Source: Promethearchaeota archaeon (GTDB taxonomy: Archaea; Asgardarchaeota; Lokiarchaeia; Sigyniarchaeales; SOKP01). From it: DNA of 19,871 nt. The notes under the pieces are model-generated. The model was not told where the DNA came from and made no database searches. It worked only from the letters and a program-made list of their open reading frames with translations. A program made the position numbers and the translations under genes. The stretch covers positions 1-19,871 of the forward strand of contig JBHLNS010000054.1 in NCBI GenBank assembly GCA_048941285.1. Direction: 5' to 3'. Positions 54 through 18,723 of the stretch are shown here, in pieces (positions within the stretch are counted from its first letter, which is position 1; every line of letters starts with the position of its first letter).

Positions 54-1250
54 TTAGATTGATTCGAAAATTTTTTTCATCCTATTTTTTAAAAATTCTA
101 TCTCATCTTCTTTTATATTCAAAGTAGGCAAAAGCCGAATGAATTCTCGGGATAGATTGAATCCAATGAGCATTCCGGCATCTAGCAACAAATTTTTTAA
201 CTTCAAAATTATTTCTTCACTGCCCATTCCTCTATATGGTTGAATTTGGATGCCAAAAATCATTCCTGTCGATCTTATTTCTTTAACAAATGGCTGGTTA
301 AGTGTGATTAAAAAATCACTGAGTTTCTGTATACTATCCTTGGAATTTTCAATAATTTGCTCCTCATTAAAAACACTTACTACAGATTTTACAACTGCCG
401 CTCCTAAAGGGTCTAATTGATGGGATTGGGCATAATATAATTCAGCTGGGGACAATTTCGATTCAAAAGTAGAATTGGTTATTATTGCACTTATAGGATA
501 TCCATTACCAAGAGCTTTACCAAGTACGACAACATCTGGTGTAATATCAAAGAGTTGATACCCAAATTTATAGCCAGTTCGTCCCATCCCGGTAGTAACT
601 TCATCTATCACAATTAAACCTCCAGATTCCTTAATTTTTTTACATATATATTGGATAAAGGCTTTACAGGGCTTAATTACCCCTCCACTCACCATAACCG
701 GTTCTAATATTAAACATGCAAAATCAGAAGGATACTCATGAAAAATTTTATCTATGTTAGGTTGATAAACTTCAAGACAGCTACATGGTTCTGAATTGCA
801 TATTGGATAACTTATTTTAAATGTTGATTCTTCTGAAGAAGTATAAGAGGACTTTTTAGCAGTACCATAAGCACCTAAATAAGAATCTTTGAGAGTAAGG
901 ACTTTATCACGCTTAGTAACCTTTTTGGCAAAATTAATACCAAATTCCATTGCTTCTGTACCACTGTTTAAAAATGTTAATTTATCATACTGAATTGGCA
1001 TAAACTTTAACAATTCTTCAGCAGCTTCGATAGTAATAGGCGTAAGAAATCCTTTATTTCGATGAATAATCTTATCTAGTTGTATTTTCATATCTTGAAT
1101 CACTCTTGGATGGTTATGACCTAGATTCACACACCACATACCTGATTCACAATCAAGATATTTTTTTCCATTTATATCCCAGATCCAAGAACCTTCTGCT
1201 TTTTTGAGAATAACTGATTCAAAAGAGTTTGTCTTAAGGATTTGATTCAT
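54..1250 (-). CDS. Class-III PLP-dependent aminotransferase (ArgD/GabT/dialkylglycine decarboxylase-like family); substrate unknown
   Basis: AEGSWIWDINGKKYLD N-terminal motif, NSGTEA, LEPV, IDEVTTGMGRTG, PLP-lysine motif PDVVVLGKALGNGYPISA, C-terminal IRLLP. Confidence 0.9.
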   Translation of the reverse strand: MNQILKTNSFESVILKKAEGSWIWDINGKKYLDCESGMWCVNLGHNHPRVIQDMKIQLDKIIHRNKGFLTPITIEAAEELLKFMPIQYDKLTFLNSGTEAMEFGINFAKKVTKRDKVLTLKDSYLGAYGTAKKSSYTSSEESTFKISYPICNSEPCSCLEVYQPNIDKIFHEYPSDFACLILEPVMVSGGVIKPCKAFIQYICKKIKESGGLIVIDEVTTGMGRTGYKFGYQLFDITPDVVVLGKALGNGYPISAIITNSTFESKLSPAELYYAQSHQLDPLGAAVVKSVVSVFNEEQIIENSKDSIQKLSDFLITLNQPFVKEIRSTGMIFGIQIQPYRGMGSEEIILKLKNLLLDAGMLIGFNLSREFIRLLPTLNIKEDEIEFLKNRMKKIFESI

Positions 1251-1329
1251 CGCTTTTTCTTATAAAAACTATTTATTTTTTAATACCAAAATGAACAAAT
1301 TTTCCATCTTTCTAAAATATATCTTAGAG

Positions 1330-2556
1330 TTATATCCTTTCAACCAAAATTGATATAATATTGTTTCCAAAGCCACCAAAATTACAGGTAATGCCTGTCT
1401 TAGCACCATCCACTTGTCTTTTTCCAGCTTCTCCTCTTAACTGCCAAACTAATTCAACAACTTGTGCAACACCTGTAGCTCCAAGTGGATGACCTCTGGC
1501 TTTTAATCCTCCTGAGGGATTAATTGGGATTTTCCCCCCAATTTGCGTTAATCCATCGTGAGCTGCTCTAGCCCCCACTCCTTTATTAAAAAATCCGATA
1601 TCTTCTGATTGAACAGCTTCAAGAATCTCAAAAGCATCATGTAATTCAGCAACATCAATATCTTCAGGTTTTTTATTAGCCATTTTATATGCTTGACCTG
1701 AACTAATCCTCAGAGCATTAAGAGTGGTTAGATCTTCTCGTTCATAAACTATATGAGTATCCGTAGCTTGCCCAATACCGGAAATAAGAATAGGTGTATC
1801 GCAATATTTTTTTGCATTATCTACATTGCATAATACTAAAGCTGCTGCTCCATCTGAAATTGGGCAAATATGAAACAATCTTAGTGGATCTGCTATTATT
1901 GGATTACTATTATTATCATTGAGAAATTCATGGATGTTATCCCAATTCCCCTTCCCTTTTTGGATTGCACTTTTCATAAAATCTTCAATTGATCTTTGAA
2001 AATGTGCTCTCGGATTTAGTGCTCCATTTTTATGATTTTTGATAGCAATATCTGAAATCCAATCCAGTTTAGCATTATACTTTTCGAGATAAGTTCTAGT
2101 TAACATACCAGCAAATGAAGGAAGAGAGACTCCATGGCGTCTTTCTGCATCAGGATGTGTTAATGTAGCGACATTTGAAGTAATGTATCCGGGAGTAGTG
2201 ATATGAGTCATTTTTTCTCCACCAACTACTAACACTAATTCGCTCATACCAGAGGCTATGGCTTGAAAACCTGCTTTAATAGCAGATCCTCCTGAAGCTG
2301 GCCCATTCTTTATATGATCCGCAGCAGCAGGAATCAGATTTATCTTATCAACAAGAACGCTTGCTACTCCAGAAAGGTGATTGAAAACTTCTGGGCTCAT
2401 TGCTCCAACATAAACAGAATCAAAATCTTTATTACTTGTGTTGGAATCTTCAATTGCTTCTAAAGATGCTTCAGATAATAAATCCATTAATTCTTTATCT
2501 TCTAATCTTCCGAAATTAGTATGGCCGATTCCAACTATTGCTACCTTATTCATCAT
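1330..2556 (-). CDS. Thiolase-domain protein, SCP2/archaeal-type (HDAF + GHP), lacking the canonical nucleophilic Cys
   Basis: VAIVGIGHTNFG start, CPISDGAAA, VAELHDAF, INPSGGLKARGHPLGATG and QLRGEAGKRQV. The nucleophile loop reads NGPASGG where NACASG is usual. Confidence 0.9.
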   Translation of the reverse strand: MMNKVAIVGIGHTNFGRLEDKELMDLLSEASLEAIEDSNTSNKDFDSVYVGAMSPEVFNHLSGVASVLVDKINLIPAAADHIKNGPASGGSAIKAGFQAIASGMSELVLVVGGEKMTHITTPGYITSNVATLTHPDAERRHGVSLPSFAGMLTRTYLEKYNAKLDWISDIAIKNHKNGALNPRAHFQRSIEDFMKSAIQKGKGNWDNIHEFLNDNNSNPIIADPLRLFHICPISDGAAALVLCNVDNAKKYCDTPILISGIGQATDTHIVYEREDLTTLNALRISSGQAYKMANKKPEDIDVAELHDAFEILEAVQSEDIGFFNKGVGARAAHDGLTQIGGKIPINPSGGLKARGHPLGATGVAQVVELVWQLRGEAGKRQVDGAKTGITCNFGGFGNNIISILVERI

Positions 2557-2592
2557 AAATAGAATTTTTCATTTAATAAAAAAAAGATGAAA

Positions 2593-3939
2593 TTATTTAG
2601 GATTTTCATTTCTTACAATTGTAGCGGCACCCATCCCCAAACCGACACACATTGACGATATTGCGAATTCTTTACCTGTTTTTTCGAGTTGATGAATGTT
2701 GGAACCAATGAGTCTACACCCTGTCATTCCAGTCGGATGTCCTAATGCTATTGCTCCGCCCCATGGATTAAATCGATCGTCCTTCCAATCTAATCCAAGC
2801 TCATAACAACTAGCGTAGACTACTGGACTAAAAGCTTCATTAATTTCTATGAAATCCATATCATTTAGGGTCATATTAGCTTTTTTTAAAGCTTTTGGTA
2901 TTGCTTCAAGAGGTCCAGTAAGCATCAAAACTGGATCGGTACCAACCACTGCAAAATTTACAATCGTTGCTCTTGGTCTTAGCCCTAATTCTTCTGCTAA
3001 GCCTCTAGTCATCCAAAGTTGAGCCGCTGCACCATCACTCACAGGACAACTATTTCCTGCTGTTAGAAAGGCTTTGCTCTTTCTTCCTGTTATCGTTCTT
3101 AAGCTCGCAAGTTTTTCCATTGATGTTCCTGGACGTGGGGTTTCATCGTTTTTTGTCAATTCTGATAAGCTTAGATCTTCAACAACTTGGTTTTTTTCAT
3201 TTAATAGAGGCTTTCCATTCTCATCAAGTTTTGGACACCAAATTGGTTCGATCTCTTTAGCTCTTTCATCCCAAGTTGAGCAAGCTTTTTCATGTGAATG
3301 TAATGAAAGACTATCCATCTCAATTCTAAAATCTTCTAAACTTAGACCCGCCTTTTTCATCCAATGTTGTCCCATAACATGAGCAGAATTAATTTGCCCA
3401 GCAAAAGAAGTCTTATGAGCCATTAATTGTTCCGCAACAAAAGGATGCGTCATAATTTTTCCATTTGGAGGGATCATTATTGGTTTATTCTGTTGTTTAT
3501 CAAAGACATTGCAGTCAGCCATAATTTCATATCGGTTTTGTACTTCCACTCCACCACATATTACGCAATCATGTATCCCTGAAGCAATTGCTTGCCAAGC
3601 TGATATTACAGATTGAGCACCGCTTGCACATTGTCGATTTATAGACATTCCTGGGACAGTTATAGGTAAGTGAGCTGCTAAAGCAGCAGTTCTTCCAATA
3701 TCAAGCGCACAATCACCAATTTGACTATTACAAGACACGATGGAATCACCAATTAATTTAGGATCAAATTCATTTCGTTTCAAAATTGCTTGATAACAAT
3801 GCACGACCAAATCGTCCCCTCGATGACGAACTATTGTACCGTTTCTTTTCCCTATTGGCGATCTTACATAATCAACTAATACAGGCTCTCGTTTTGAGTC
3901 TTTAAAGTAATTTTCATACATATTTATTGGTTCTGGCAT
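2593..3939 (-). CDS. Acetyl-CoA C-acyltransferase (canonical thiolase)
   Basis: All catalytic motifs are present: NRQCASG (nucleophile Cys), EINEAF, GGAIALGHPTGMTG and SMCVGLGMG. TAGNSCPVSDGAAA is also present, and a GTGA SD-like site lies upstream of the ATG. Confidence 0.95.
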   Translation of the reverse strand: MPEPINMYENYFKDSKREPVLVDYVRSPIGKRNGTIVRHRGDDLVVHCYQAILKRNEFDPKLIGDSIVSCNSQIGDCALDIGRTAALAAHLPITVPGMSINRQCASGAQSVISAWQAIASGIHDCVICGGVEVQNRYEIMADCNVFDKQQNKPIMIPPNGKIMTHPFVAEQLMAHKTSFAGQINSAHVMGQHWMKKAGLSLEDFRIEMDSLSLHSHEKACSTWDERAKEIEPIWCPKLDENGKPLLNEKNQVVEDLSLSELTKNDETPRPGTSMEKLASLRTITGRKSKAFLTAGNSCPVSDGAAAQLWMTRGLAEELGLRPRATIVNFAVVGTDPVLMLTGPLEAIPKALKKANMTLNDMDFIEINEAFSPVVYASCYELGLDWKDDRFNPWGGAIALGHPTGMTGCRLIGSNIHQLEKTGKEFAISSMCVGLGMGAATIVRNENPK

Positions 3940-4256
3940 AATTTTTCACTTTAAAAATTTCTTAATGAAACCAAATGCAATTTTACTAAAGAATTTTATT
4001 TATAATTCTAATAAGTATCTACATGTAACTTTTACAATTTTGAATATTTTTTTTTAAAGTTTGTTGAGATAGAGTTTTAATCATGGTGCAGGTCCTACAT
4101 TATATCTTTTTCTGCCGGCAATAAAAGAATACATAACAACATAACTTTTTTTAATATTTTTTATTTAAAAGAATTCAAATATTCAAACACTATTATCTTT
4201 TTAAATAAAAAAAAAATAAGATATTCCCTTTTTAATACAAGCTTAGCTGTTCTACA

Positions 4257-5450
4257 ATGGTATATATAGATAAAGCGAAATTAAGAACCTTATTCAAATG
4301 GTACATGCAAGAAGTAGGAGAAATTTTAGTCTCTGTGCTTATCGTGGATCGCGAAGGGTTAATAGTTGATATTTTAACAAGGGATAAAGAGAAAACAGAT
4401 GAGGATAAATTTATTGGTGCTTTTAGTTCATTAGTAGAAGTAGTTCTAAAAAAATTAACAAAAGATTTTGATCTTGGCACTTTTGGTGCTGGAACGTTTG
4501 ACACGGATAAATATCGATTTATTTTTTGTGAATCTGGAACTGACCATGTTCTAGTTTCAATACTCAGTCATACTGCTCTAGTTGATGATGTATTTCCATA
4601 CGCATATTTAACTGCTGATAAAGTAGCGAGGATAATTGATGGAAAATTACCTGTTAGCCCCGTAATTCCAAAAATACAGAGAGATACCGAACTAGAAAAA
4701 ATAAAACGAAAGATGGAACATTACCAAAGTAAGCCTCATTCATCAGAGTATGTCTATAAGCTTTCTCTACTTGGAGATGGAGGAGTCGGTAAGACAAGTA
4801 TGGTTCAAAGATATGTCTATGGAATCTTTAATAAGGATTATAAAGCTACAATTGGCACTTATATTTCTAAAAAAGAATGTGAATTTAAAGAATTGGGTAC
4901 ATCAGTAAGATTTATGATATGGGATTTAGCAGGGCAAAGCCAATTTGAACGTTTATGGCCAGATTATTTAACAGATTCACGTGCGGGAATCATAGTTTTT
5001 GATATAACAGATAGGGAATCATTTGAGCATGTAAAGAAATGGTATGACATTGTTTCACGAGTTGCATTACCAAATATAGTTTTGATCCTTGTAGGAAATA
5101 AAGTAGATCTTAACATTTCTAGGGTTGTCTCAACTGAAGAAGGTATGCAATTAGCTAAAAAGTTAGATATTTATTATATGGAAACCTCAGCAAAAACAAG
5201 TGAAAATATTGAAGATGTCTTTGTTTGGATTGCACTCCAAATAATCAACTTAAACATAGAAAAAGTAAGAGAAACTCTACTTGATAAACAAATTGAAGAA
5301 GGAACAAAATTTATAGTATCAAGTCCTCAATTAAGAATCTTAAATCAATATTTTATGAAACAACTAGATTATTGTATAGGAAAAAGTGATTCTAAAGAAA
5401 TAACTAAATGTCTAGACATCCTGAAAACAATTGAAAAAAATAAATTATAG
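4257..5450 (+). CDS. Roadblock/LC7-like domain fused to a Rab-like (Ras superfamily) small GTPase
   Basis: The N-terminal ~130 aa have a roadblock-like pattern (SVLIVDREGLIV...). The G domain has G1 GDGGVGKT, G2 ATIG, G3 WDLAGQ, G4 NKVD and G5 ETSAK, followed by a ~65-aa C-terminal extension. Confidence 0.9.
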   Translation: MVYIDKAKLRTLFKWYMQEVGEILVSVLIVDREGLIVDILTRDKEKTDEDKFIGAFSSLVEVVLKKLTKDFDLGTFGAGTFDTDKYRFIFCESGTDHVLVSILSHTALVDDVFPYAYLTADKVARIIDGKLPVSPVIPKIQRDTELEKIKRKMEHYQSKPHSSEYVYKLSLLGDGGVGKTSMVQRYVYGIFNKDYKATIGTYISKKECEFKELGTSVRFMIWDLAGQSQFERLWPDYLTDSRAGIIVFDITDRESFEHVKKWYDIVSRVALPNIVLILVGNKVDLNISRVVSTEEGMQLAKKLDIYYMETSAKTSENIEDVFVWIALQIINLNIEKVRETLLDKQIEEGTKFIVSSPQLRILNQYFMKQLDYCIGKSDSKEITKCLDILKTIEKNKL

Positions 5451-5464
5451 GTTCTGAATTTCAA

Positions 5465-8365
5465 TTAAATTTCGATGTAAAGGGCGGGTTTGAAAGGTTT
5501 AGCTTTTGTAGCTTTACTTTTAGGATCGAAATTAGAATTTATTATAATCTTTGAATTTACTCGTTTTTCTATATAAAATTTATATTGTTTTAATAATTCT
5601 CTTTCATTAATTTGGGGAAAATTAGTTTCCCAAATCCTGTCTTTCAATCCATTTTTTATGAAAGAAATTACTTCCTTGTTACTAATTAACCTTTTATTCT
5701 TTTTTAGCTCAGATATTATTTCATTGAAATTATCTTTTTTTAATGATATTAAATTTAAAACTTCATATTTCCATTCAGGTGCTAAATAGATATAGATTTC
5801 TCCAGATTTTTGTGATTTTACAATTTTTCTTATATTGAAAATATCATCAATAATATTTGAGATATAATCAAATTCACCCTCAAGGGTATTATTAATATAT
5901 TGTTTATTAAAATCTCCCCAAACTGCTTTTGATATAAATTCTTCATTTCCAGCAAGTTCCCATAATTCTTCACATAAATGAGGCATTGTTATTGAGAGTA
6001 ATTTTAGCCAATCTTTATAAATCAATTTGAAGACTAATAGAAAATCATCTAAATTCTCAATATCTCTATTAAATTCCTGAATTAGATTAAATATCTCATA
6101 AAATGCAATCTGTAGATATCTCCTTATATTATATTCTTCTAATCCCTTTAGCGCATCAAAAAATTTCTTAATAATTTTAGAGAGTATCACCATTGAATAT
6201 TTAGAGTTAATATTTTCAAATCTGGCTTCAATATTAATTGATTCTCTAATTGTTTTTGACATAAAAGTATAAAATTTAGTTATATGATTTTTCACTGTTT
6301 CTATTTCTTTTTCTCTAAAATCCATATAAACACCAAAATCTGCACCGTGAGATATATAAAACCTAAATAAGTCAGCAGAATATTTTTTTTTTATTTCAGC
6401 TAAAGGAATAAGATTTCCTTTTGATTTACCCATTTTTTGTCCTTCTACATTGACTGGTTCGATTAAAGTGATGACTTTTGGCCAATGTTTTTTTGGAAAA
6501 ATAGCAACATGATGGAATATATAAAAACTCAAATGATTAGATATATGCATTATAGCAGTGTGTCGATGGTCAACAGGGTACCAATAAATAAATTCTTTTT
6601 GGAGTTCTCTCAGTATATTTTCTCCAATATTTGTGTGTTTCGAAAGTTTTTTTAAATCTCCCTTCTCTAAGAATACAAAATTGAAAATTTCTGGAATTAA
6701 TTGTTCTGGTTTAATTTGATATTCTCTGATTTTATGAGATATTGTATAGAAAGCCATATATATAGTCGAATCACTTAGTGATTCTATAATCCACTCCTTA
6801 TCAAAGGGTAATTCGGTACCGAGCCCTCTTTTTCTAGCACACGGCCTCTTTTCAAGCCAATTAAAAATATTTTCAAAATTTAATCGATACTTATTGGGTA
6901 TAATTTTCATATTATTAAGGCATTCAAATGCTTTTTTCTTCCAATTCCCGGCATTAAAATTAAGAAACCATTGATTCTTAAGAATAGATACAATAATTTC
7001 CGCACCGCACTTACATCTTAAATTTCTAGTAACAGGCATATATATTTTATCCGCTTTATTCTCTTCAATTAAATCTAGAGCGACTTTTGTAGCAGCACTG
7101 CTAACGTTCATTCCTTGGTATTTGCCACATTTATCATTAAGTACACCATTATAGAATTCATATTTGTAATTCTCACTTGTTGCCAGGTCCAGTTTCTCCT
7201 CATCTTTTTGAGACTCAACATTATATTTCTCACAGTATATTTTTGCTGGAAAATCTTTGAATCCCTTTATTCCAATAATTTGAATTGGATAAATTAATTC
7301 AATTTCTCTTTCATTCAAATTGAATTTTTTAATTAATTGTGTATCTTTTTGTAAATCAATTAAAGCCATATAATCATAAGGAGCGTGAGCTGGAACGGAA
7401 TAAACAACTCCAGTTGCTGTGAATGTTTCAACAAATTCTCCGGGTAAAATCGGAATTTCTTTGATTCCATAGACGTCTCTAGCTTTTTTACCAATGATTT
7501 CACCCCCTTTAAAATTTTCTGATATTTTAATCTCCTTATTTTGGTTTTCTAATAACTTGGTTGCTTCATTAGAGATAAACCATATTTCTCCATTCACGGT
7601 AGCCTTGACATAATCTCCACTCGGTTTTATCCATATATTTGTTACTCCATATATTGTTTCTGGTCTTAAAGTGGATGCTACAAGAAATCCATCCTCAAAT
7701 GGGAATTTAATGCATATATATTCATTTATATTAAGATCTAATTCATCCCCACTTGCTATGTCATCTTCCCCCACAGCATTTTTGTCTCTAGGACAATATA
7801 AAATAGGATATTCTCCCTTTTCAATATAGCTTTTTTCTTTTAAATGAAAGTATTGCCATTCAATGAATTTATTATAGATCTTGTCTCCCGTAGTAAATTC
7901 TCTTCGCCAATCTAAACTCATCCCCATTGACTTGAAATCTAGTTTAATTGTGTTAGAAAAATAATTTACAATATTCCAAGGATTTACAAAGCCCTTGACA
8001 ATACTATTCACATTTTTCTGATCTTTAGTGTGTAATGATACATATTCTTTCATCCTAGTTATTTGTAGTTTATCGCCTCTTTCTATAGAGGATGAAATCG
8101 CTAAAACTGGAGTCCCAGTAATATGAAATGCCATGGGATATAATACGTTATACCCTTTCGCGCGGTAATATCTGGCAAATATATCTCCATTAATAAAGCT
8201 CCGTCCATGACCTATATGAGTAGGCCCAGAGGCATATGGGTAAGGAGAAGTAATTAGAATTTTCTCTTTATTTTTATCTGGGTTTGCATCGAATATTTTT
8301 GCTTTTTCCCATTTATCTTGCCATTTTTTTTCAATTTCTTGTGGATCATACATATTTTTATACAT
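5465..8365 (-). CDS. leuS: Leucine--tRNA ligase, archaeal/eukaryotic type. Start is probably ATG 8365 (or 8353), not the TTG at 8449 given in the ORF track
   Basis: IEKKWQDKW N-terminus, PYPYASGPTHIGH, CP1 editing motifs TLRPETIYG and ATGVVYSVPAHAPYD, WIIESLSDSTIYMAFYT, KMGKSKGN, C-terminal KAKPFKPALYIE. Confidence 0.96.
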   Translation of the reverse strand: MYKNMYDPQEIEKKWQDKWEKAKIFDANPDKNKEKILITSPYPYASGPTHIGHGRSFINGDIFARYYRAKGYNVLYPMAFHITGTPVLAISSSIERGDKLQITRMKEYVSLHTKDQKNVNSIVKGFVNPWNIVNYFSNTIKLDFKSMGMSLDWRREFTTGDKIYNKFIEWQYFHLKEKSYIEKGEYPILYCPRDKNAVGEDDIASGDELDLNINEYICIKFPFEDGFLVASTLRPETIYGVTNIWIKPSGDYVKATVNGEIWFISNEATKLLENQNKEIKISENFKGGEIIGKKARDVYGIKEIPILPGEFVETFTATGVVYSVPAHAPYDYMALIDLQKDTQLIKKFNLNEREIELIYPIQIIGIKGFKDFPAKIYCEKYNVESQKDEEKLDLATSENYKYEFYNGVLNDKCGKYQGMNVSSAATKVALDLIEENKADKIYMPVTRNLRCKCGAEIIVSILKNQWFLNFNAGNWKKKAFECLNNMKIIPNKYRLNFENIFNWLEKRPCARKRGLGTELPFDKEWIIESLSDSTIYMAFYTISHKIREYQIKPEQLIPEIFNFVFLEKGDLKKLSKHTNIGENILRELQKEFIYWYPVDHRHTAIMHISNHLSFYIFHHVAIFPKKHWPKVITLIEPVNVEGQKMGKSKGNLIPLAEIKKKYSADLFRFYISHGADFGVYMDFREKEIETVKNHITKFYTFMSKTIRESINIEARFENINSKYSMVILSKIIKKFFDALKGLEEYNIRRYLQIAFYEIFNLIQEFNRDIENLDDFLLVFKLIYKDWLKLLSITMPHLCEELWELAGNEEFISKAVWGDFNKQYINNTLEGEFDYISNIIDDIFNIRKIVKSQKSGEIYIYLAPEWKYEVLNLISLKKDNFNEIISELKKNKRLISNKEVISFIKNGLKDRIWETNFPQINERELLKQYKFYIEKRVNSKIIINSNFDPKSKATKAKPFKPALYIEI

Positions 8366-8387
8366 AAGCTTACTTTCTTTCTTTTTT

Positions 8388-8441
8388 TTTAATTGAATTA
8401 TTCCTTGAGTGAGCCAATAATTATGATCTCTTTCAATTAAA
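8388..8441 (-). promoter_or_regulatory. Second stem-loop in the leuS 5' leader (10-bp perfect inverted repeat)
   Basis: mRNA UUUAAUUGAA (8441-8432) is complementary to UUCAAUUAAA (8397-8388) and ends ~22 nt before the leuS ATG. The stem is AU-rich, so a chance match is possible. Confidence 0.35.
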
Positions 8442-8450
8442 TTTACCAAG

Positions 8451-8509
8451 CAAGCGAAAAAATCCGTGGAAAATCAAAAGAAAAAGAGCATAAGGATTTG
8501 TTTCGCTCA
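8451..8509 (-). promoter_or_regulatory. Candidate attenuator stem-loop in the leuS leader
   Basis: mRNA AGCGAAA-C-AAAUCC (8507-8494) pairs with GGAUUU-UUUCGCU (8465-8453): 13 Watson-Crick bp with one bulge. The 28-nt loop is UUAUGCUCUUUUUCUUUUGAUUUUCCAC. The 5' arm overlaps the leader-peptide UGA. Confidence 0.6.
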
Positions 8510-8593
8510 AAATAACAATAAAACTGCGAGTAAATTAACTAATAATGTTTTTTCTATTATATTCATCCTTAACGCAGTCTTATTTGAAATCAT
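8507..8593 (-). CDS. Putative Leu-rich leader peptide of leuS, MISNKTALRMNIIEKTLLVNLLAVLLLF (alternative start ATG 8566 gives 19 aa)
   Basis: Manual translation of the minus strand: ATG 8593 to TGA 8509-8507. It has 8 Leu in 28 codons, 7 of them in the last 12. It lies directly upstream of leuS on the same strand and is followed by a stem-loop with U-tracts. Confidence 0.65.
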   Translation of the reverse strand: MISNKTALRMNIIEKTLLVNLLAVLLLF

Positions 8594-8612
8594 TCTTATA
8601 AAAATATATGTG

Positions 8613-8634
8613 TGTTTATATTAAAATATTTCTA
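8613..8634 (-). promoter_or_regulatory. Putative archaeal BRE/TATA promoter for the leader-peptide/leuS transcript
   Basis: The minus strand reads TAGAAATATTTTAATATAAACA. The TATA-like element is ~22-33 nt upstream of ATG 8593, a spacing that would give a leaderless start at the leader ORF. The AT-rich background lowers specificity. Confidence 0.35.
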
Positions 8635-8775
8635 GGTTTTTACCTTATTTTGTTACTTGTGGATTAATTCCTATTGCGATAACTCGTTCTTAGAAAATAG
8701 TGCAAATTGTTAAATATATCCTCTTATTTCATTTTTTTGATATAATACCTGAACGAAAACGGGGAAAAGGATCTT

Positions 8776-11700
8776 ATGAAAAGAACTATTAAACAAAACC
8801 AAGTTGAAATTGAATCTAAAAGTATCAATAAATTATTACAAATTAGCCTCGATGCGATGAATGAAGCTGTTTTTGTAATTGATTTAAAACATAAAATCCT
8901 CCAATGTAATAAGGCAACTTTAAATATTCTAGGAAAGTCTAATTACCATGATGTCATAGGACATTCTTGTATGGAACTATTACATTGTACTACTGAACCA
9001 GTTGATTGGTGCCCTGTAAGAAGAATGTGGGAAACTGGTAAAAGAGAGGTTAACTTTCAATTATTGAATGGTAAATGGGCTGAAATGTCTGCTGAACCCA
9101 TCTATAATGATAAGGGTGAAATTACTGGAGCAGTTCATATCATCGCTGACATTAACGCCCGCAAAAGAGCAGAAGATGCATTAAAAGAATCAAAACAGCA
9201 ATATCTCATGATTCTAAATTCTTTGAGTGATGCTATGCATGTGGTAGATGAAGATTTAAGAATTATTTTCCAAAATCCTGCAATGAATCAATGGCTAGAA
9301 ATATTAAATTTAAACCCTGATAATATAGGTAAACCAATTTTCGAGGCATTTCCTTTTTTAGATCATTATAAAGTTTATAATGAATATAGCAAAATCTTCA
9401 AAGAAAAGAAACCTTTAAGCACAATTGAAGGTACAAAACTATTTAATCGAATAATATTTACTGAAACTTTAAAAATACCTATTATTAGTGAAGGTCAAGT
9501 AAAACAGATTATAACTATTCTGAGAGACATCACTGATCGGAAGAAATTTGAAGAAAATTTAAAGGCATCTGAAGAAAAATATAAAAACATCATCAATAAT
9601 TTGATGGATATTGTAATAGTAGTAGATTTAAACGGGAACTTCCAATATGTCAGTCCTCAAATTCTTGAGATTACTGGATTTAAACCAGAAGAGATGATTG
9701 GTAAAAATGGATTTAAGTTTATGCACCCTGATGATGTATTAAACGCTGCTGAAGTATTAAGAGAAGTAATGAATAGCAAAGAGAAAATCCACATCAAATA
9801 TCGTATAATCCATAAAGATGGACATTATATCGATGTATCTGCTAGCGGAAGGCTAGTTAATATTGCTGGAGAAGAAAGAATTTTCGTAGTTGTGAAAGAC
9901 ATATCCGACCAAAAGAGAGCAGAACATAAGTTAAAAGAATCAGAAAAAAACTATCGATATTTGATTGAAAATGCATTAGAAGGAGTTTGGGTTATAGATT
10001 CAAATGCACAAACAACTTTAGTTAATCCGAGTATGGCAAAAATATTAGGTTATTCAGTAGATGAGATGATTGGAAAATCTGTTTTATCTTTTATGGATAG
10101 TGAACAAGCAAAAATTACTAAAAAGCACTTAGAAAAAAGGAAAAAAGGTATTTCGGAGGAGAGAGACGCTATTTTTATCCATAAGAATGGAAATTTAGTT
10201 TATTTAAGAATTAAAGCGACCCCAATTTTCAATAGCAATGGTGTCTATGAAGGAACATATGCATTTTTGGCAGATATTACTAACAGTAAGCATGCTGAAG
10301 AAAAATTGAAAGAATCGGAGGATCAATTTAGAACCATTACCGAACAATCATTTATGGGAATTGTAATACTACAAGATGGAGTTTTTAAATATTTGAACGA
10401 ACAAACTGCAAAAATAAATGGATACACCATCGAAGAGATTCAAAATTGGAAGCCGAATGAATTTATAAAGATTATACACCCTGAAGATAGAGAATTTGTT
10501 ATGGAACAGGCTCGAAAAAAACAAACAGGTGATCCAGATGTTATATCTCACTATCAATATAGAGTTATTAAAAAAAATGGGGAAGTAATCTGGCTTGAAA
10601 ATTTTTCAAAAACTATAAACTATGGAGGGAAACCTGCAGATTTTATCATGACAATTGATATTAGCGACAAAATAAAAGCAGAACAAATGTTAAGGGAATC
10701 GGAAGAGAAATATCGATTAATTTCAGAAAATACGGATGATTTAATTGTAGTTTATAATGAAGATGGAATAATAGAATACCTAAATTCTGATACTCATTCA
10801 AGAGTTTTAGGGTATAATACTGATCAATTTTTAGAAAAATCTTTTAGAGACAAATTAGTACATAAAGATGATAGAGCAATAGCAGATAAATCTGGAAGTG
10901 AAGGTTTAGAAAAAGGAAATTTCCAATATCAATTTAGATTAAAACATCAAAATGGCAATTATATCTGGTTTGAGGTCTCCGGTAAAACTTTTAAAGACCA
11001 TTATGGTAATAGAAAAATTTTGTGTGTTTCAAGAAACATCAATGAAAAAAAATTAGCAGAACAGAAAATCAAAGAATCTAAAGAAAATTTCAGAACGATA
11101 GCTGAACAAGCTTTCATTGGGACATTAATCATTCAAGATGACAAAGTGGAGTATGTAAATAATGCTTTGTTACAAATTTTTGACTATTCTTTTGAAGAAG
11201 TCGTTCACTGGAAAAAAGATGATCTAATCAAGCTAATTTACCCGGAAGATTTACAATATTTAAGAGAATATCGCGAAAAATTGCGAAGTGGTGAATCCGA
11301 CATTAAACAGTATTATTCTTATAGAGTATTTACAAAATATGGTAAAATAAAATGGATAGATCAATATTCAAGACCTATTATTTATCGTGAAAAATCTGCG
11401 GAATTAGTCACTATTATGGATATTACTGAAAAGAAGAAGGCTGAAGAAGAATTAAAAAAGTTAAACAGTTTAAAATCTGAACTTCTTAGAAGGACTTCCC
11501 ATGAATTAAAAACACCGCTTGTATCCATAAAAGGTTTTTCTGATCTTTTATTAACTGTACATAAAGATAAATTAGATGATTATGTATTAGCTGCAATTCA
11601 TGAAATAAAACTTGGATGTGAACGATTAGAAAATCTTATTCAAGATATTTTAAAAACATCTGAGTTAGAATCTGAATTAGTTGAACTAAAGAAATCTGAA

Positions 11701-12162
11701 GAGGATTTATCATTCTTGATAAAATTATGCATAAGGGAGTTGCAAGGCTTAATCAGATTAAGGAATCATGAGATTCATTTAAATATCCATGATAAGTTGG
11801 TGACTAGATTTGAACCAGACCAAATCCATCTTGTTTTAAGTAATTTACTCAATAATGCTATAAAATATACCCCTCCAAATGGAAAAATCGAGATTAAATC
11901 GGCTTTTACCGACGATTATGTCCTAATTTCAATAGAGGATAATGGAATTGGAATAACAAGTGAAGAGAAGAAAAGGTTATTCACTCAATTTGGAAAAATT
12001 GAACGATATGGGCAAGGACTTGACATTATTTCTGAGGGTTCTGGATTAGGTTTATTTATAACTAAAAAAATTATTGAATTGCATGGTGGAACAATTAGGG
12101 TTAAGTCAAAGGGGAGGAACAAGGGTTCTACTTTCTATTTTACTCTTCCCTTGATTAAATAA
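8776..12162 (+). CDS. Cytoplasmic multi-PAS sensor histidine kinase (about 7 PAS/PAC repeats + HisKA + HATPase_c)
   Basis: Repeated PAS-PAC junctions (DITDRKKFEENLKASEEKY-like), H-box SHELKTPL, N-box NLLNNAIKYT, G1 DNGIGI and G2 GSGLGL. No transmembrane segment or receiver domain is visible. Confidence 0.95.
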   Translation: MKRTIKQNQVEIESKSINKLLQISLDAMNEAVFVIDLKHKILQCNKATLNILGKSNYHDVIGHSCMELLHCTTEPVDWCPVRRMWETGKREVNFQLLNGKWAEMSAEPIYNDKGEITGAVHIIADINARKRAEDALKESKQQYLMILNSLSDAMHVVDEDLRIIFQNPAMNQWLEILNLNPDNIGKPIFEAFPFLDHYKVYNEYSKIFKEKKPLSTIEGTKLFNRIIFTETLKIPIISEGQVKQIITILRDITDRKKFEENLKASEEKYKNIINNLMDIVIVVDLNGNFQYVSPQILEITGFKPEEMIGKNGFKFMHPDDVLNAAEVLREVMNSKEKIHIKYRIIHKDGHYIDVSASGRLVNIAGEERIFVVVKDISDQKRAEHKLKESEKNYRYLIENALEGVWVIDSNAQTTLVNPSMAKILGYSVDEMIGKSVLSFMDSEQAKITKKHLEKRKKGISEERDAIFIHKNGNLVYLRIKATPIFNSNGVYEGTYAFLADITNSKHAEEKLKESEDQFRTITEQSFMGIVILQDGVFKYLNEQTAKINGYTIEEIQNWKPNEFIKIIHPEDREFVMEQARKKQTGDPDVISHYQYRVIKKNGEVIWLENFSKTINYGGKPADFIMTIDISDKIKAEQMLRESEEKYRLISENTDDLIVVYNEDGIIEYLNSDTHSRVLGYNTDQFLEKSFRDKLVHKDDRAIADKSGSEGLEKGNFQYQFRLKHQNGNYIWFEVSGKTFKDHYGNRKILCVSRNINEKKLAEQKIKESKENFRTIAEQAFIGTLIIQDDKVEYVNNALLQIFDYSFEEVVHWKKDDLIKLIYPEDLQYLREYREKLRSGESDIKQYYSYRVFTKYGKIKWIDQYSRPIIYREKSAELVTIMDITEKKKAEEELKKLNSLKSELLRRTSHELKTPLVSIKGFSDLLLTVHKDKLDDYVLAAIHEIKLGCERLENLIQDILKTSELESELVELKKSEEDLSFLIKLCIRELQGLIRLRNHEIHLNIHDKLVTRFEPDQIHLVLSNLLNNAIKYTPPNGKIEIKSAFTDDYVLISIEDNGIGITSEEKKRLFTQFGKIERYGQGLDIISEGSGLGLFITKKIIELHGGTIRVKSKGRNKGSTFYFTLPLIK

Positions 12163-12255
12163 AAAAGAAAGAAAAAGTACTTGTTGAAAGAATTAAAACA
12201 ACCAAAAATTATTACAATCTAATCTTTTTTTAATAAATTTCAAATTATATTATTT

Positions 12256-12876
12256 ATGTCAATAACGAAAAAAGATGCTGAAATCCAAGCAGAAAAAATA
12301 GTTAGAAGAGTTTTAGACGAGAAAAATTATCTTCCTAAATTATTAGAAGGAATTAAAGCAAAGGAAGACTCAATACGATACCCAAATGCAATCGCTTTAG
12401 AAATCCTCAGTAAGGAGAATCCCGAAATCATTTATCCTGAATGGGAAATATTCGTTGAATTATTAAAAAGTAAAAATGCATATCACAAGTCGATTGCAAT
12501 CTCAACAATTTCAAATTTAAGTATAATAGATGAGCAAAATAAATTTGAAGAAATTTTTAAAGAATTTTTTAAACTCATTGATGATAAAAGTGTAATTGTT
12601 ACAAGAAAACTAGCTATTTATGCCGGTAAAATTGCTAAGGCTAAACCATTGTTAAGATCTAAGATTACAACCATTTTATTAAGTATTGATAATACTCAAC
12701 ATAGCCCTAGCCGCAAAGATTTAATTAAAGGAGATATTATTGAAAGTCTCAGTGAATATTTTAAAAATATTAGGAATAAAATTGAAATTATCAAATTTGT
12801 TAAAAATCAATTAAAAAGTAGTAGCCCAAGCACAGTAAAGAAAGCTAAAGAGTTCCTTTCAAGATGGGAAAAATAA
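12256..12876 (+). CDS. Hypothetical all-helical protein, HEAT/ARM-repeat-like
   Basis: Repeating helix-turn-helix patterns (LLKSKNAYHKSIAI, LIDDKSVIVTRKL, QLKSSSPSTVKKA); 206-aa ORF with an ATG start. Confidence 0.65.
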   Translation: MSITKKDAEIQAEKIVRRVLDEKNYLPKLLEGIKAKEDSIRYPNAIALEILSKENPEIIYPEWEIFVELLKSKNAYHKSIAISTISNLSIIDEQNKFEEIFKEFFKLIDDKSVIVTRKLAIYAGKIAKAKPLLRSKITTILLSIDNTQHSPSRKDLIKGDIIESLSEYFKNIRNKIEIIKFVKNQLKSSSPSTVKKAKEFLSRWEK

Positions 12877-12980
12877 ATTGATGATTATGTCAACAAAATT
12901 CTTAACAATATTTATTAAAACTTTTAATTTTTACCTAAATTATCCAAATTTAAATTAAAAAAATATTATTGTGAATTTAA

Positions 12981-14435
12981 ATGGTTGAATTTAATCCAAG
13001 GGTTTTAAGTAAAGAGGAATTAAGAGCAATATCAGCTGGTATAAATGAGGAAGAATTAGTACTATTTGATAAACATTTATTAGACAACTATTATGATGAA
13101 AATGTTTTAATAGAAGCTAAAGAGCCAGGATCTCCATGGATTATCGTAAAGAATCTTAAAACAGGGGAGTTTTCCGAAAAACTTGACTGCACTGCTCAAT
13201 TTTGGTCATTAGCATTAGGTTTTGCCCATCCTGATGTTAATTATGCTGTAGCTGAACAAATGAAGAGATTAACCCATATTAAGTCTGAAGGTGTTTGTCC
13301 ATCCCGTGCTAAATTTATAAATAAACTTTCTGAATTATGCCCAGGTCGATTGAAAGGAGGAAGAGTTGCTATTAATAACGAAGGGGGAAGCCTAGCAATC
13401 GAAGCTGCAATAAAATTTACACTAATAGCTTCTAGAACTGGAGATCATTTTCTAACATTTCGAGGGGGATACCATGGAAATACATTAGCTACGATAACAG
13501 CATCTCAACCTTTTCATACAATAACAAGATTTCGACCATTTGGGGTAGATTTTTTTACACGTGTTCCACAGCCTTATTGTTATCGTTGTATGTGGAATTA
13601 TAAAAATGGATTATATGGTAAAAAGGACCCAGAATGTAATCTCGAGTGTTTTACCTTAGTTAAAGAGTATTTAATGGGGTTAACATCAAGAAAACTAGCA
13701 GGAGTTATTTTAGAGCCTTGGCAAGCTGCAGGTGGACATGTACCATTTCCACCAGACTTTCTTATAAAATTAAGGGAAGTTTGCGACGAAGAAAAAATTT
13801 TCATAATCTATGATGAATCCCAAACGGGCGTGTGGAGAACTGGTAAATATTTTACTCTTACAGAGAAATATGAAAAAGAACTTGGAATTGATGTCTCTCC
13901 TGATATGATGTGCTTTACGAAAGCTATTGGTGGGGGCTTTCCATTAGGAGCTATGATTGCATCTAATAAAATCAAAAAGAGGTTTGGACCATCAGAAGAT
14001 CATACAACCTTCTGCAATGCCCCTATAGGTTGTACAGCAGGACTTGCATCAATTATGGTAATTGAAAGAGCAAAAATAGGAGAAAATTGTGAAGAAAGAG
14101 GAAAACAAATTACTAAACGATTAAAAGAATTTCAAGAAAGATATGAAAATATAGGAGATATACGTGGTCCAGGGTTATTCATAGGAATTGAATTAGTTAA
14201 GGATAAAGAATCAAGAGAACCTTTTACAGAATTAATGGAAGAAATGCTTCATGAGGGTATAAGGCAAGATGTATATTTTGGGCCTAGTATGCCTTATCTT
14301 AGTGGAACAGGGAAATTGTTAAAGCGAAATTTAATTAAAATAAAACCTCCACTTAATATTACTGAAGATGATGCCGATTTTATTTGTGATAAATTTGAAA
14401 ATGTATTAAGGACATCAATTAACAATTTAAAATAA
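12981..14435 (+). CDS. Class-III PLP-dependent aminotransferase (GabT-like); substrate unknown
   Basis: GYHGNT, PYCYRC, ILEPWQAAGG, YDESQTGVWRTG, PDMMCFTKAIGGGFPLGA, GDIRGPGLFIGIELVKD and KIKPPL, with a GTGA SD-like site upstream. Confidence 0.92.
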   Translation: MVEFNPRVLSKEELRAISAGINEEELVLFDKHLLDNYYDENVLIEAKEPGSPWIIVKNLKTGEFSEKLDCTAQFWSLALGFAHPDVNYAVAEQMKRLTHIKSEGVCPSRAKFINKLSELCPGRLKGGRVAINNEGGSLAIEAAIKFTLIASRTGDHFLTFRGGYHGNTLATITASQPFHTITRFRPFGVDFFTRVPQPYCYRCMWNYKNGLYGKKDPECNLECFTLVKEYLMGLTSRKLAGVILEPWQAAGGHVPFPPDFLIKLREVCDEEKIFIIYDESQTGVWRTGKYFTLTEKYEKELGIDVSPDMMCFTKAIGGGFPLGAMIASNKIKKRFGPSEDHTTFCNAPIGCTAGLASIMVIERAKIGENCEERGKQITKRLKEFQERYENIGDIRGPGLFIGIELVKDKESREPFTELMEEMLHEGIRQDVYFGPSMPYLSGTGKLLKRNLIKIKPPLNITEDDADFICDKFENVLRTSINNLK

Positions 14436-14442
14436 TCAAACT

Positions 14443-15687
14443 ATGAATTCTCGAGAACGTGTACTTACAAGCATTAATCATAAAGAACCAGATAGAGTTC
14501 CTATTGATCTTGCGGGGTTTCCAGTAACAGGAATTTCTGCTATTGCGTATCATAACTTAAAGGAATATCTAGGGATAAAAGCAGGTCATGTTAGAGTTTA
14601 TGATCTAATGCAGCAGCTAGCCTTACCTGAGGAAATGGTACTTGACTTATTCAAAGTAGATGTTTTAGATTTAGGAAGGACTTTCAACACAGAGAATGAG
14701 GATTGGTATGATATTAAAGTAAATGGATATGATTTTCAATATCCACATTGGTTTAAGCAAAAGCGTAATCCTGATGATTCTTATGATATCTATCATCGTG
14801 ATGGGACCATAATCGCAAGGATGACTAAGGATGCATTAGTTTTTGACCAAATGTATTATCCTTGCTTAAATAATTACCCTCAGACCTACATCGACTTTCA
14901 GAAAATGGCTTCGAAAAATCCATGGGTATCTCAAATAACTCCTCCTTTTAGTAATATAGGTCAAAAAAAATTTTGGAAGACTTTAAGAAATAATGCAATT
15001 ACCTTAAAAGAAAAGTCTAATAAAGTAATAACACTCAATTTAGGAAGTACTTCTTTTGAATTAGCAAGTTCATTTAGAAGATTGGACAAATTCTTGATTG
15101 ATTTAGTAAGAAATACTTCTCAAGTCGAAAAGTTTCTTGATTATTTGCTAGAATTTTTTTTGACTTCCTTCAAATTAATATGTGGTTATGTGGGAGATGT
15201 TGTTGATATTATAAAAATTGGTGATGATCTTGGTGAAAATAAAGGTCCTTTTATTAGTCCTAAAATTTTTCGAGAAATTTTTAAACCAAGGATTGCTGAA
15301 ATATGCGATTTCATTAAGAAAAATAGCTCAATGAAGATATTTTATCATTCCTGTGGTTCTATAGTCCCATTATTATCAGATCTGATAGATACTGGAATAG
15401 ATATTCTCAATCCTGTACAAATAAACGCTAGAGATATGGATCCTAAATTTTTAAAAGAAAACTTTGGTGATGACATTACTTTTTGGGGCGGTGGTGCGGA
15501 TACGCGGAATGTTATTAATAGAAAAAGTCCAGAAGAAGTTAAAAAGCATGTTTTAGAGCTTCTTGAAATTTTTTTTCCTGGTGGAGGATATATATGGAAT
15601 ACAGTTCATAATATTTTACCAGATGTGCCACCTCAAAACATAATTGCGATGTTTGAAGCTATCGAGGAATTTAATCATAAGTTATAG
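14443..15687 (+). CDS. Uroporphyrinogen decarboxylase / MtaA-CmuA methyltransferase family protein
   Basis: MNSRERV...HKEPDRVPID N-terminus, GDDLG...ISPKIFRE, Zn-site-like YHSCG, GIDILNPVQ, FWGGG and HNILPDVPPQNI. It starts 7 bp after the aminotransferase, suggesting an operon. Confidence 0.88.
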   Translation: MNSRERVLTSINHKEPDRVPIDLAGFPVTGISAIAYHNLKEYLGIKAGHVRVYDLMQQLALPEEMVLDLFKVDVLDLGRTFNTENEDWYDIKVNGYDFQYPHWFKQKRNPDDSYDIYHRDGTIIARMTKDALVFDQMYYPCLNNYPQTYIDFQKMASKNPWVSQITPPFSNIGQKKFWKTLRNNAITLKEKSNKVITLNLGSTSFELASSFRRLDKFLIDLVRNTSQVEKFLDYLLEFFLTSFKLICGYVGDVVDIIKIGDDLGENKGPFISPKIFREIFKPRIAEICDFIKKNSSMKIFYHSCGSIVPLLSDLIDTGIDILNPVQINARDMDPKFLKENFGDDITFWGGGADTRNVINRKSPEEVKKHVLELLEIFFPGGGYIWNTVHNILPDVPPQNIIAMFEAIEEFNHKL

Positions 15688-15690
15688 ACA

Positions 15691-16653
15691 TTATTCTAAT
15701 GATTCTTCACTCACAAGTCTCAAATATTGAATTGATTTTGGCTTAAATGAAAATTGATTTTTTTTATATGGAATTATCTTAACTTGAGGATAAAAATTGG
15801 CTAAATAAAGTGAAATACCTCTAATTTCGATATCATTAAGGAGAAACTTCACATTATTGAATTTTAAGAATCCTAATTGTCCTTTAATTTCATGTAAATT
15901 TCCAATTTCATGAAATCCGAAATAAACAGTATATCTTTTATCGGAAGAAAACCTCTGGTTGGAAATTACTGTTCCTATTTTATAGTGAGGAATTCCTCCA
16001 TCTAAAATGCATATTATATTGTTTATTCTTACTTTAAAACCATAAAAGGGGTAAAGATAATGATAAAAATGCTTTGGTAACTTTCCTAAAATTATTTCTG
16101 GGCAAATAGAACTTATTTCAATAGGTATCTCGTTTGCATTTTCTTGTTTGGAGATCTGCTTTACAATATTTTCATTTTCAATTGCTAATGAGAAATCTTT
16201 CCCACCTCTAGCACGAATAGCATCATTGGATGGCCTAAGTTCAAGGTGAAGATGAGGACTTGACCAATAAGCAAAATAACCATTTCGAATTGTTTTACCT
16301 AAAACGTCCCCTACATTAATAAATTCTCCAACGTTCACAATAGGCTTAACATGCATTATCTTCCATACGGACTCAGATTTATTACCATTATTAATTAAAA
16401 TTAAATAATCAACATTAACTCCATCAATGAATCTTGGTTTAGGAGCTGCTAAAGTCTTGATCTGTAAGACTTTTCCTGAAATTGGGCTCAGGACATCATA
16501 GTTTTCTAAAGTAAGATTTTGATAAATATCAATAGCTAATCCGTGCTGATGTGCATAATAAGGAGATGTACCTATACTAAAATGACTTGTCTGGGTTATA
16601 GAAACTCGATTATTGTTTACTTTGACAATATCGTAAAATCCAGATTTAGGCAT
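15691..16653 (-). CDS. Hypothetical protein with an N-terminal M23 metallopeptidase-like (HxxxxxD / HxH) domain
   Basis: AHQHGLAIDIY, VLSPISGKV, MHVKPIVNVGEFINVGDVLG and SSPHLHLELR follow the M23/duplicated-hybrid motif order. No obvious signal peptide. Confidence 0.7.
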   Translation of the reverse strand: MPKSGFYDIVKVNNNRVSITQTSHFSIGTSPYYAHQHGLAIDIYQNLTLENYDVLSPISGKVLQIKTLAAPKPRFIDGVNVDYLILINNGNKSESVWKIMHVKPIVNVGEFINVGDVLGKTIRNGYFAYWSSPHLHLELRPSNDAIRARGGKDFSLAIENENIVKQISKQENANEIPIEISSICPEIILGKLPKHFYHYLYPFYGFKVRINNIICILDGGIPHYKIGTVISNQRFSSDKRYTVYFGFHEIGNLHEIKGQLGFLKFNNVKFLLNDIEIRGISLYLANFYPQVKIIPYKKNQFSFKPKSIQYLRLVSEESLE

Positions 16654-18718: not shown

Positions 18719-18723
18719 TATTT

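Follow-up and report, generated by a model that had tools for sequence, protein, structure and literature searches.

A structured leader with a conserved leucine-rich reading frame upstream of an archaeal leuS gene, a candidate for ribosome-mediated attenuation

Upstream of leuS, the gene for an archaeal-type leucyl-tRNA synthetase (LeuRS) on contig JBHLNS010000054.1 of a Promethearchaeota archaeon, a short upstream open reading frame (uORF) with a Leu-rich tail was found to be conserved together with the RNA fold in which it lies, and comparison of related sequences suggests that this 28-codon ORF is probably a translated leader peptide that senses the cognate aminoacyl-tRNA within a structured leuS leader of about 180 nucleotides (nt). 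The contig was analysed over positions 1 to 19,871 (hereafter the window) and belongs to a genome (G000) of 3.55 Mb in 101 contigs with 29.7% G+C. The stretch from 8593 to 8507 on the minus strand, which reads exactly as quoted in the original prediction, consists of 28 codons followed by a TGA stop and encodes MISNKTALRMNIIEKTLLVNLLAVLLLF, a peptide with Leu at 8 of its 28 positions and seven Leu among the last 12 residues. The downstream gene had been named leuS, and its product was confirmed as an archaeal-type LeuRS by matches to TIGR00395 (940.6 bits) and NF008957 (1086.5 bits); the TATA-like box proposed upstream of the uORF was likewise found (TTTTAATATAAA at 8626..8615). The distance of 141 nt to an ATG at 8365 had been counted correctly, but an ATG aligned to 8365 in only two of 19 same-genus orthologues, whereas the second ATG at 8353 (MYDPQEIEKKW) was the aligned start in all 19, so that the conserved leuS start is 8353 and the spacing between uORF and leuS is 153 nt. 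Among the intergenic ORFs of G000 starting with ATG and encoding 20-60 amino acids (aa; n = 1747), 14 (0.8%) contained at least seven Leu in any run of 12 residues and two (0.1%) contained seven Leu in their last 12 residues. The Leu density of the uORF thus exceeds chance, and the comparison with intergenic ORFs of the same genome that had been suggested as a check turned out in favour of the prediction.

To find further loci, the N-terminus of LeuRS was searched by tblastn in G000, 24 same-genus genomes and 16 same-order genomes. Orthologues of the archaeal-type LeuRS were present in 18 same-genus genomes with 73-87% identity and, in diverged form (40%), in G013, while five same-genus genomes showed only matches to bacterial-type LeuRS. 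An ORF of 27-44 aa was located at approximately -240 to -153 from the leuS start in 19 of 19 same-genus loci, G000 included, which is what the original prediction had asked of orthologous leuS genes. The middle of the encoded peptides varied among these loci and the tail (..LLAVLLL) was conserved. In the nucleotide alignment of the 19 loci, a conserved block of about 230 nt comprised the TATA-like box, the ORF and about 90 nt past its stop codon, and the sequences flanking this block did not align. Leu-rich uORFs before leuS were also detected in other genera of the same family (f1). In genus g1, none of the five genomes without archaeal-type leuS had the leuS-type leader; three of them had no match to the leader model described below (R1), and two had only weak matches of another class.

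The RNA fold of the leader was derived with RNAalifold from the 19 sequences, which gave hairpins 1 and 2, and was then refined; a covariance model (R1) was built from the same sequences, and 72 copies from several genera were aligned (Table 1). Taken over all helices, 90.9% of the cells in the 72 copies were paired, versus 38-43% when the partners were slid, and 32 of 40 pairs were changed on both sides (194 cells), values that none of 500 shuffles reached. In an alignment that was fitted to hairpins 1 and 2 and so favours them, the outer stem of hairpin 1 had 94.9% of its cells paired with compensatory changes in 10 of 11 pairs, its inner stem had compensatory changes in six of six pairs (for example GC in 22, AU in 14 and UA in 11 copies at one pair), and hairpin 2 (P3) had 92-94% of its cells paired with compensatory changes in 11 of 14 pairs. 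The third helix (P1), which lay outside the model behind the alignment, had 84.9% of its cells paired and changes on both sides in four of eight pairs. The three helices are therefore real, and the G.U pairs among them place the RNA on the leuS strand. Within the loop of hairpin 2, TCTTT.TCT was invariant across the 19 sequences. A scan of positions 8000-9200 with Rfam 15 at E-values of up to 10 yielded only chance-level matches to mir-374 and OmrA-B. Readings of the element as a riboswitch, a C/D-box RNA or an H/ACA RNA were dropped upon inspection by eye, as no defining boxes were conserved, and three further pairings judged by eye showed no evident covariation: that of the A-rich 5' arm with the U-tract, that of CCAC in the P3 loop with AGGUGG at the 3' end, and that of the 5' arm with the junction sequence TTTAATTG.

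Table 1. Features of the leuS leader in the window, and related leaders at other loci. Positions without a prefix are those of the window.
Feature	Position or locus	Strand	Basis or remark
TATA-like box TTTTAATATAAA, putative promoter	8615..8626	-	-33..-22 from the uORF ATG; kept in the 19-genome alignment
Structured leader element (model R1), ~180 nt	8415..8596	-	19-sequence model, 188.4 bits in the window
uORF with Leu-rich tail, 28 codons + TGA	8507..8593	-	frame conserved across copies
P1 5' strand, AUGAUUUC, contains the uORF start codon	8586..8593	-	pairs with 8430..8423
Hairpin 1 outer stem 5' arm, uORF codons 4-7	8574..8584	-	RNAalifold, covariation
Hairpin 1 inner stem-loop, 8559..8554 with 8545..8540	8540..8559	-	covariation
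Hairpin 1 outer stem 3' arm, tail codons GCA GTT TTA TT	8517..8527	-	covariation
Hairpin 2 (P3) 5' arm, first triplet is the uORF stop UGA	8494..8509	-	covariation
Oligo-U tracts (T5, C, T4) in hairpin 2 loop	8476..8485	-	candidate archaeal termination signal
Hairpin 2 (P3) 3' arm	8451..8465	-	RNAalifold, covariation
Conserved junction GGTAAATTTAATTGAAA, TTTAAT..GAAAG kept	8431..8447	-	possible second TATA-like word
P1 3' strand, GAGAUCAU	8423..8430	-	~165 nt downstream of the 5' strand
A-rich spacer before leuS, poorly conserved, without a Shine-Dalgarno-like word	8354..8414	-	19-locus alignment
leuS, archaeal-type leucyl-tRNA synthetase, 962 aa	5465..8353	-	NCBIfam matches, orthologue-aligned start
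R2 leader before ileS	G000:C94:40681-40836	-	locus L033: uORF ATG 3821, stop codon ends 3747
g16 leaders L094, L095	G080:C6:1142988-1143158, G098:C41:3227-3400
R1 class (b) members	L086, L087, L096, L097, L099, L100, L102, L104, L126, L129, L131, L132, L136
R1 tandem pairs ~610 nt apart, before small acidic ORFs	L113, L114, L117, L118, L120, L121, L122
Other R1 leaders (Val-rich or diverged class) before small acidic ORFs	L073-L074, L080-L085, L089, L091

The fold overlaps the reading frame, and both leave their mark on the sequence. Codon periodicity was weak in the 19 close sequences (entropy of 0.47/0.51/0.61 at the three codon positions), and the third positions of the stem codons 23-27 were almost invariant in them, so that constraint at the nucleotide level is real; these sequences left coding versus RNA function undecided, and it was the conservation of the frame in the wider family that decided it. 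Among the 72 aligned copies, 71 retained the ATG and 69 the frame, one of the three frame exceptions (L086) being also without the ATG, and indels within the uORF were multiples of three: the segment inside the innermost pair of hairpin 1 measured 31, 34, 37, 40, 43, 46, 49 or 52 nt. Of 120 copies, 113 had frame 0 open over 20 codons or more, against seven and 13 for the other two frames; composition predicts about 20%. Moreover, the two Leu codons that precede the 3' arm and lie outside the stem varied synonymously (TTA CTC, CTA CTT, TTG CTT, CTG CTG and others), and all six Leu codons were used in the tails (TTA 246, CTT 30, TTG 27, CTC 23, CTA 14, CTG 5). The retained frame and ATG, the synonymous change at Leu codons and the covariation indicate that fold and reading frame are both under selection; as judged from these alignments, the ORF, its frame and the Leu identity of its tail are under selection.

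In G000 the window copy was the only strong match to model R1, and a weak match was found on another contig (C75). Across the order (151 genomes), 104 of the 131 family f1 genomes other than G000 gave a match to R1, and 0 of 19 from three other families did. Ten further genera of f1 besides that of the window carried it, and two genera were without it (g12, 0 of 4; g13, 0 of 5). In a sample of the phylum, R1 was matched by 15 of 25 f1 genomes, against 0 of 125 drawn from 26 other families. Some genomes contained two to four copies, some of these in tandem. We examined 120 copies with their downstream DNA and distinguished four classes. Class (a) comprises 51 copies before a LeuRS gene, which was recognised by an N-terminal motif; tblastn confirmed this for L001-L019 and L022, Pfam for L083 and NCBIfam for five more, and the motif test missed three further leuS-linked copies of genus g1. 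Class (b) comprises 13 copies before a gene for a protein of about 480 aa with FrhB/FdhB (F420 hydrogenase beta-like), 4Fe-4S and TrmB-HTH domains, identified by Pfam for three and by blastp for 13 of 13; at the two loci looked at, this gene is a monocistronic unit, so that no operon hints at its role. Class (c) consists of about 20 copies whose downstream neighbours are small acidic ORFs (56-78 aa) that share a C-terminal motif resembling E.ED..KM.YLR.KY and had no match in a Pfam search. In one subclass, immediately past the leader, an anti-Shine-Dalgarno sequence (CACCUC) pairs with both the start codon and the Shine-Dalgarno (SD) sequence GGAGGUG, and such an SD/AUG-sequestering hairpin was confined to the small-ORF class of the family. 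Class (d) is diverged. The weak match on C75 (G000:C75:372-538, plus strand, L036; 28.6 bits) belongs to this diverged class and has a peptide ending in ..IRSIIKRE; no same-strand gene lies close downstream of it, and near-identical peptides are encoded by seven or more further genomes of the genus.

The amino acid that dominates the tail differed between these classes. The last 12 residues contained 5-9 Leu, 0-1 Ile and 0-3 Val in the 51 leuS-linked copies of class (a), 3-8 Ile (range over 12 copies) and 0-4 Leu in class (b), and 3-7 Val in class (c), and before leuS the Leu-rich tail persisted across quite different tail sequences. Leu-rich leaders preceded archaeal-type leuS also at L088, L127, L128 and L098. 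In genus g16, a Leu-rich leader (..KVLLLLLL) is located 102 nt before a bacterial-type leuS (L094, L095), an assignment made with TIGR00396 for L095 (756.7 bits) and by the N-terminal motif only for L094; because these leaders belong to the R1 family, a Leu-rich leader has here been joined to a non-orthologous leuS. A scan of G000 returned 54 short intergenic ORFs with at least six of one residue among the last 12, 18 of which had a same-strand gene within 400 nt; of those 18, two stood before cognate synthetase genes (leuS and ileS) and the 10 others that were checked stood before unrelated genes. The link of the leader to leuS is specific, and three independent cognate associations were counted: with archaeal-type leuS, with bacterial-type leuS and with ileS.

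The association with ileS came from extending the search to the other class-I synthetase genes of G000, following the original prediction's recommendation, which brought out an Ile-rich uORF before ileS in G000 and a leader of this kind at 30 of 30 loci. All three computational checks proposed in that prediction thus supported it, and none of the findings that it named as refuting was obtained. The ileS paralogue of 954 aa on contig C94 of G000 is preceded, at -238..-163, by a uORF of 24 codons (MNIVSKFLGFVKNMIMIISTIIII) with seven Ile among its last 12 residues, and an Ile-rich uORF was present at six of six orthologous loci. A second covariance model (R2) matched 40 of 135 genomes of the family with a single copy each, and in all 30 loci examined the copy was located 68-119 nt before an ileS of the 954-aa type. 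In 29 of these 30 loci the uORF had 5-8 Ile among the last 12 residues, and ATT ATT ATT was invariant in every R2 uORF read. The R2 fold pairs the AUG region of the uORF with a segment past its stop codon, one pair being CG in 16 and UA in 10 sequences. No Ile-rich uORF was found at 13 loci of the ileS type of about 1060 aa, and no cognate-rich uORF was found upstream of the bacterial-type leuS of G000, its valS and its ileS of about 1050 aa, or upstream of the archaeal-type leuS of family f2 (L020, L021). G000 contains two LeuRS genes, the archaeal-type gene of the window and a bacterial-type gene (C32:123680-126469, plus strand), and two IleRS genes, of 954 aa (C94) and 1048 aa (C10); in each pair, only one gene carries a cognate-rich leader.

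Upstream of the uORF, a TATA-like hexamer started between -38 and -24 in 103 of 115 copies, and TATA-like words across G000 peaked slightly at about -32 relative to start codons; the TATA spacing fits a leaderless or near-leaderless start of the uORF. Downstream of it, the leader's T5-C-T4 tract starts at a distance of 21 nt from the uORF stop, and a tract of at least four T occurred within 90 nt after the stop in 115 of 116 copies (median 21 nt). Around 2615 long ORFs of G000, sense-strand T5 tracts peaked at 0-40 nt past the stop, with densities per position of 0.028-0.036 after stops, 0.010 further out and about 0.004 inside genes, as expected if oligo-U acts as a terminator in this organism. 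SD-like words in G000 peaked at -16 to -9 from start codons, and the region upstream of leuS lacks such a word. AGGUGG, an SD-like word at the 3' end of many copies, was considered as the SD of the following gene; G000 lacks it, and where it occurs 45-60 nt separate it from the next start, so that it is not the SD of that gene. Both SD-led and leaderless mRNAs seem to occur in this organism, and its terminators seem to be oligo-U tracts.

From these elements we infer translation of the uORF, transcription start at its AUG and termination at the U-tract, which would combine into the following mechanism. Transcription would start at the AUG or a few bases from it, as set by the TATA box, and a ribosome would load onto the nascent 5' end while transcription proceeds. 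Since the Leu-rich tail is encoded by the 3' arm of hairpin 1 and the bases preceding it, a ribosome decoding or stalling there would hold hairpin 1 open; its advance over the Leu codons is most likely the readout of Leu-tRNA(Leu) supply that determines the share of transcripts entering leuS. On reaching the stop codon, the ribosome would occupy the 5' arm of hairpin 2 and trail a polymerase at the U-tract by about 21 nt, and how far apart the two stand at that point may decide between termination, be it intrinsic at oligo-U or FttA-dependent, and read-through. In read-through transcripts P1 would pair the AUG with the distal strand and close the uORF; with the AUG closed in this way at full length, a single decision would be made while the RNA is being transcribed. 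If bacterial synthetase leaders are a guide, LeuRS should rise when Leu-tRNA is short. More tentatively, it is possible that one archaeal family, probably an Asgard one, employs ribosome-mediated attenuation of the classical style, in which leaderless, structured leaders with Leu, Ile or Val tails read the charging of the three branched-chain tRNAs; such an archaeal 'ribulon' would reach paralogous synthetases (leuS of two types, ileS), the FrhB/TrmB-type regulator and the small acidic proteins through coupling of ribosome and polymerase at oligo-U terminators.

Several results weigh against sensing of Leu-tRNA by the leader. A G+C-rich hairpin directly before the U-tract was not found in the leuS leader, and local hairpins before U-tracts were weak and no better than those of shuffles (-4.7 kcal/mol and z = +0.42 for leuS, -5.7 kcal/mol and z = -0.99 for ileS). 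No conserved, mutually exclusive pairing of the terminator/antiterminator kind was found for the leuS leader either, so that the original prediction of attenuation held in part: the Leu-rich uORF is conserved, but the terminator/antiterminator logic of bacterial attenuators is not present. Partition-function folds in which the footprint of a ribosome was masked at the first tail codons, at the last tail codons or at the stop left the accessibility of the leuS start unchanged (0.58 versus 0.55-0.56; 51 leaders) and gave no consistent change in SD/AUG accessibility in the small-ORF class (eight leaders). A translational switch at the leuS start was rejected on account of this lack of an accessibility change with masked ribosome positions. 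The stem in part dictates the tail codons that form it, and the invariant third positions in the U-rich arm mean that part of the hydrophobicity of the tail follows from the stem. Ile- and Val-rich relatives of the leader stand before genes without a known tie to Ile or Val, and the diverged class (d) has a different peptide without an amino-acid run. Copies within a class share ancestry, which leaves few independent associations. The direction of the response is also affected: if coupling simply suppresses termination, shortage of Leu would lower LeuRS. Contigs of one metatranscriptome run did not cover the leader, which says nothing on its expression.

Many of these points are shared by an explanation in which the leader is translated and structured and no specific amino acid is sensed, with translation serving only to bring a ribosome onto the 5' end and maintain coupling, or to remodel the RNA, and the tails arising as a by-product of the U-rich arm. 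It would account for the overlap of the tail with the 3' arm of hairpin 1 and the covariation of that arm with the A-rich 5' arm, for the R1 class without an amino-acid run, for the Ile- and Val-rich copies before genes with no known tie to these residues, and for folding models that show no codon-position-specific switch. We nevertheless consider it unlikely, because the identity of the tail residue is class-specific and stable (Ile at 0-1 of 12 positions in 51 leuS tails versus 3-8 in FrhB-linked ones), the Leu codons outside the stem vary synonymously, Leu-rich tails precede two non-orthologous leuS genes, and an unrelated leader couples an Ile-rich tail to ileS.

Still less probable is that the ORF encodes a functional small hydrophobic peptide, such as a membrane micropeptide, or a product akin to type I toxins with an mRNA shut by 5'-3' pairing, and merely neighbours leuS. 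The mRNAs of hok-type toxins fold back on themselves, which resembles the sequestration of the AUG in a long-range helix of the leader, and the conserved reading frame, the hydrophobic C-terminus and the occurrence of two to four copies, some in tandem, in certain genomes would suit such a peptide. Its hydrophobic run, however, is limited to about 9-14 residues, conservation is lacking in the middle of the peptide, and tails strictly of Leu, of Ile or of Val would be unexpected for a membrane anchor. The ORF keeps one position and one orientation before leuS at 19 of 19 same-genus loci and in several other genera, with the leader missing exactly where archaeal-type leuS is missing. The fixed context of the leuS-linked copies also argues against membership in a type I toxin-antitoxin system. 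The least probable of the three alternatives, a non-coding structured RNA with an incidental open frame (a protein- or ligand-binding leader, for example for autoregulation by LeuRS, or a small RNA), would agree with the strong covariation in three helices, the conservation reaching about 90 nt past the stop and the invariant third positions of the stem codons, but not with indels in multiples of three, a frame 0 that is open in 113 of 120 copies (seven and 13 for the other frames), an ATG retained by 71 of 72, synonymous Leu codon change and the lack of an Rfam match.

A leader peptide that senses Leu-tRNA would have its closest counterparts in the classical leader-peptide attenuators of bacteria, which control the leu, trp, his and ilv operons and pheST. 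Such attenuation needs transcription and translation to be coupled on one nascent RNA, which is textbook knowledge for bacteria. Like these attenuators, the leuS leader has a leader ORF with a run of cognate codons that overlaps conserved helices and is followed by a U-rich tract; unlike them, it occurs in an archaeal host, has an apparently leaderless uORF and no sequence homology to them, lacks a G+C-rich terminator stem by the U run and a recognisable 1:2 / 2:3 / 3:4 alternative, carries its U-tract in a hairpin loop and closes its AUG by a long-range helix. The leader of the tna operon, TnaC, acts through a conserved peptide sequence together with free tryptophan and on Rho termination. 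As with TnaC, the leuS leader peptide would be short enough, at about 24-28 residues, to stay in the exit tunnel, and a ribosome at its stop codon would mask RNA needed by a termination factor, which is Rho there and could be FttA here; unlike in TnaC, the middle of the peptide varies and the conserved part is the codon identity of the tail. With T-box riboswitches the leader has in common that it is a structured synthetase leader with a presumed response to cognate tRNA charging, and it differs from them in the lack of a T-box match in Rfam and of a conserved specifier loop or T-box sequence, and in its conserved reading frame, which T-boxes do not need. In Streptomyces, candidate attenuators were predicted upstream of leuS and trpS, according to the available text of the source (PMC1262725), so that there, as in pheST, a synthetase gene is the one regulated, as it would be here. 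The mycobacterial polycysteine short ORFs, insofar as the available text of their report describes them (10.1101/834739), are leaderless and use a single-residue codon tract as sensor, as proposed for the leuS uORF, and several related sensory ORFs would form a ribosome-directed regulon or 'ribulon', the counterparts here being the Leu, Ile and Val classes; they differ in the duplex sequestering the ribosome-binding site by which they are defined in that text, which was not found for leuS. Since neither this duplex nor the hairpin logic of the attenuators applies to leuS, the leader resembles both systems and belongs to neither.

A literature search (full text, covering few subscription journals and no supplements) found no report of an archaeal leader peptide or of a leuS leader, in agreement with the statement in the original prediction that no characterised leader-peptide control of an archaeal leuS is known. 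If true, the archaeal 'ribulon' considered above would be the first amino-acid-sensing attenuation outside Bacteria. According to the available text of a 2025 perspective, direct evidence that archaea couple transcription to translation is still scarce, and oligo-U and/or FttA suffices for archaeal termination (PMC13681488). A cognate-rich, apparently leaderless uORF before leuS or ileS would be a natural reporter of archaeal coupling, in a lineage probably near the origin of eukaryotes, where coupling was later lost, and the leader would make the interplay of polymerase, oligo-U/FttA termination and leading ribosome directly testable in an archaeon. The leaders also point to regulated second copies of LeuRS and IleRS, and with R1 and R2, for which covariance models were built, they add two RNA families that are absent from Rfam.

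In the window, the leader promoter is divergent from a gene for a histidine kinase of 1128 aa with many PAS domains (8776-12162, plus strand). Within the divergent intergenic region outside the leader, 60 nt at 8679-8738 were matched with 95-99% identity by one metatranscriptome contig that then continues into unlike sequence, and this stretch may be a short repeated or mobile segment. The neighbouring genes include one for a Ras/Roc-family GTPase of 397 aa (4257-5450, plus strand) and one for a 206-aa protein with a weak, sub-threshold match to Adaptin_N (12256-12876, plus strand). Eukaryote-like signature proteins (Ras/Roc/Arf GTPases) are consistent with an Asgard origin of the sequence.

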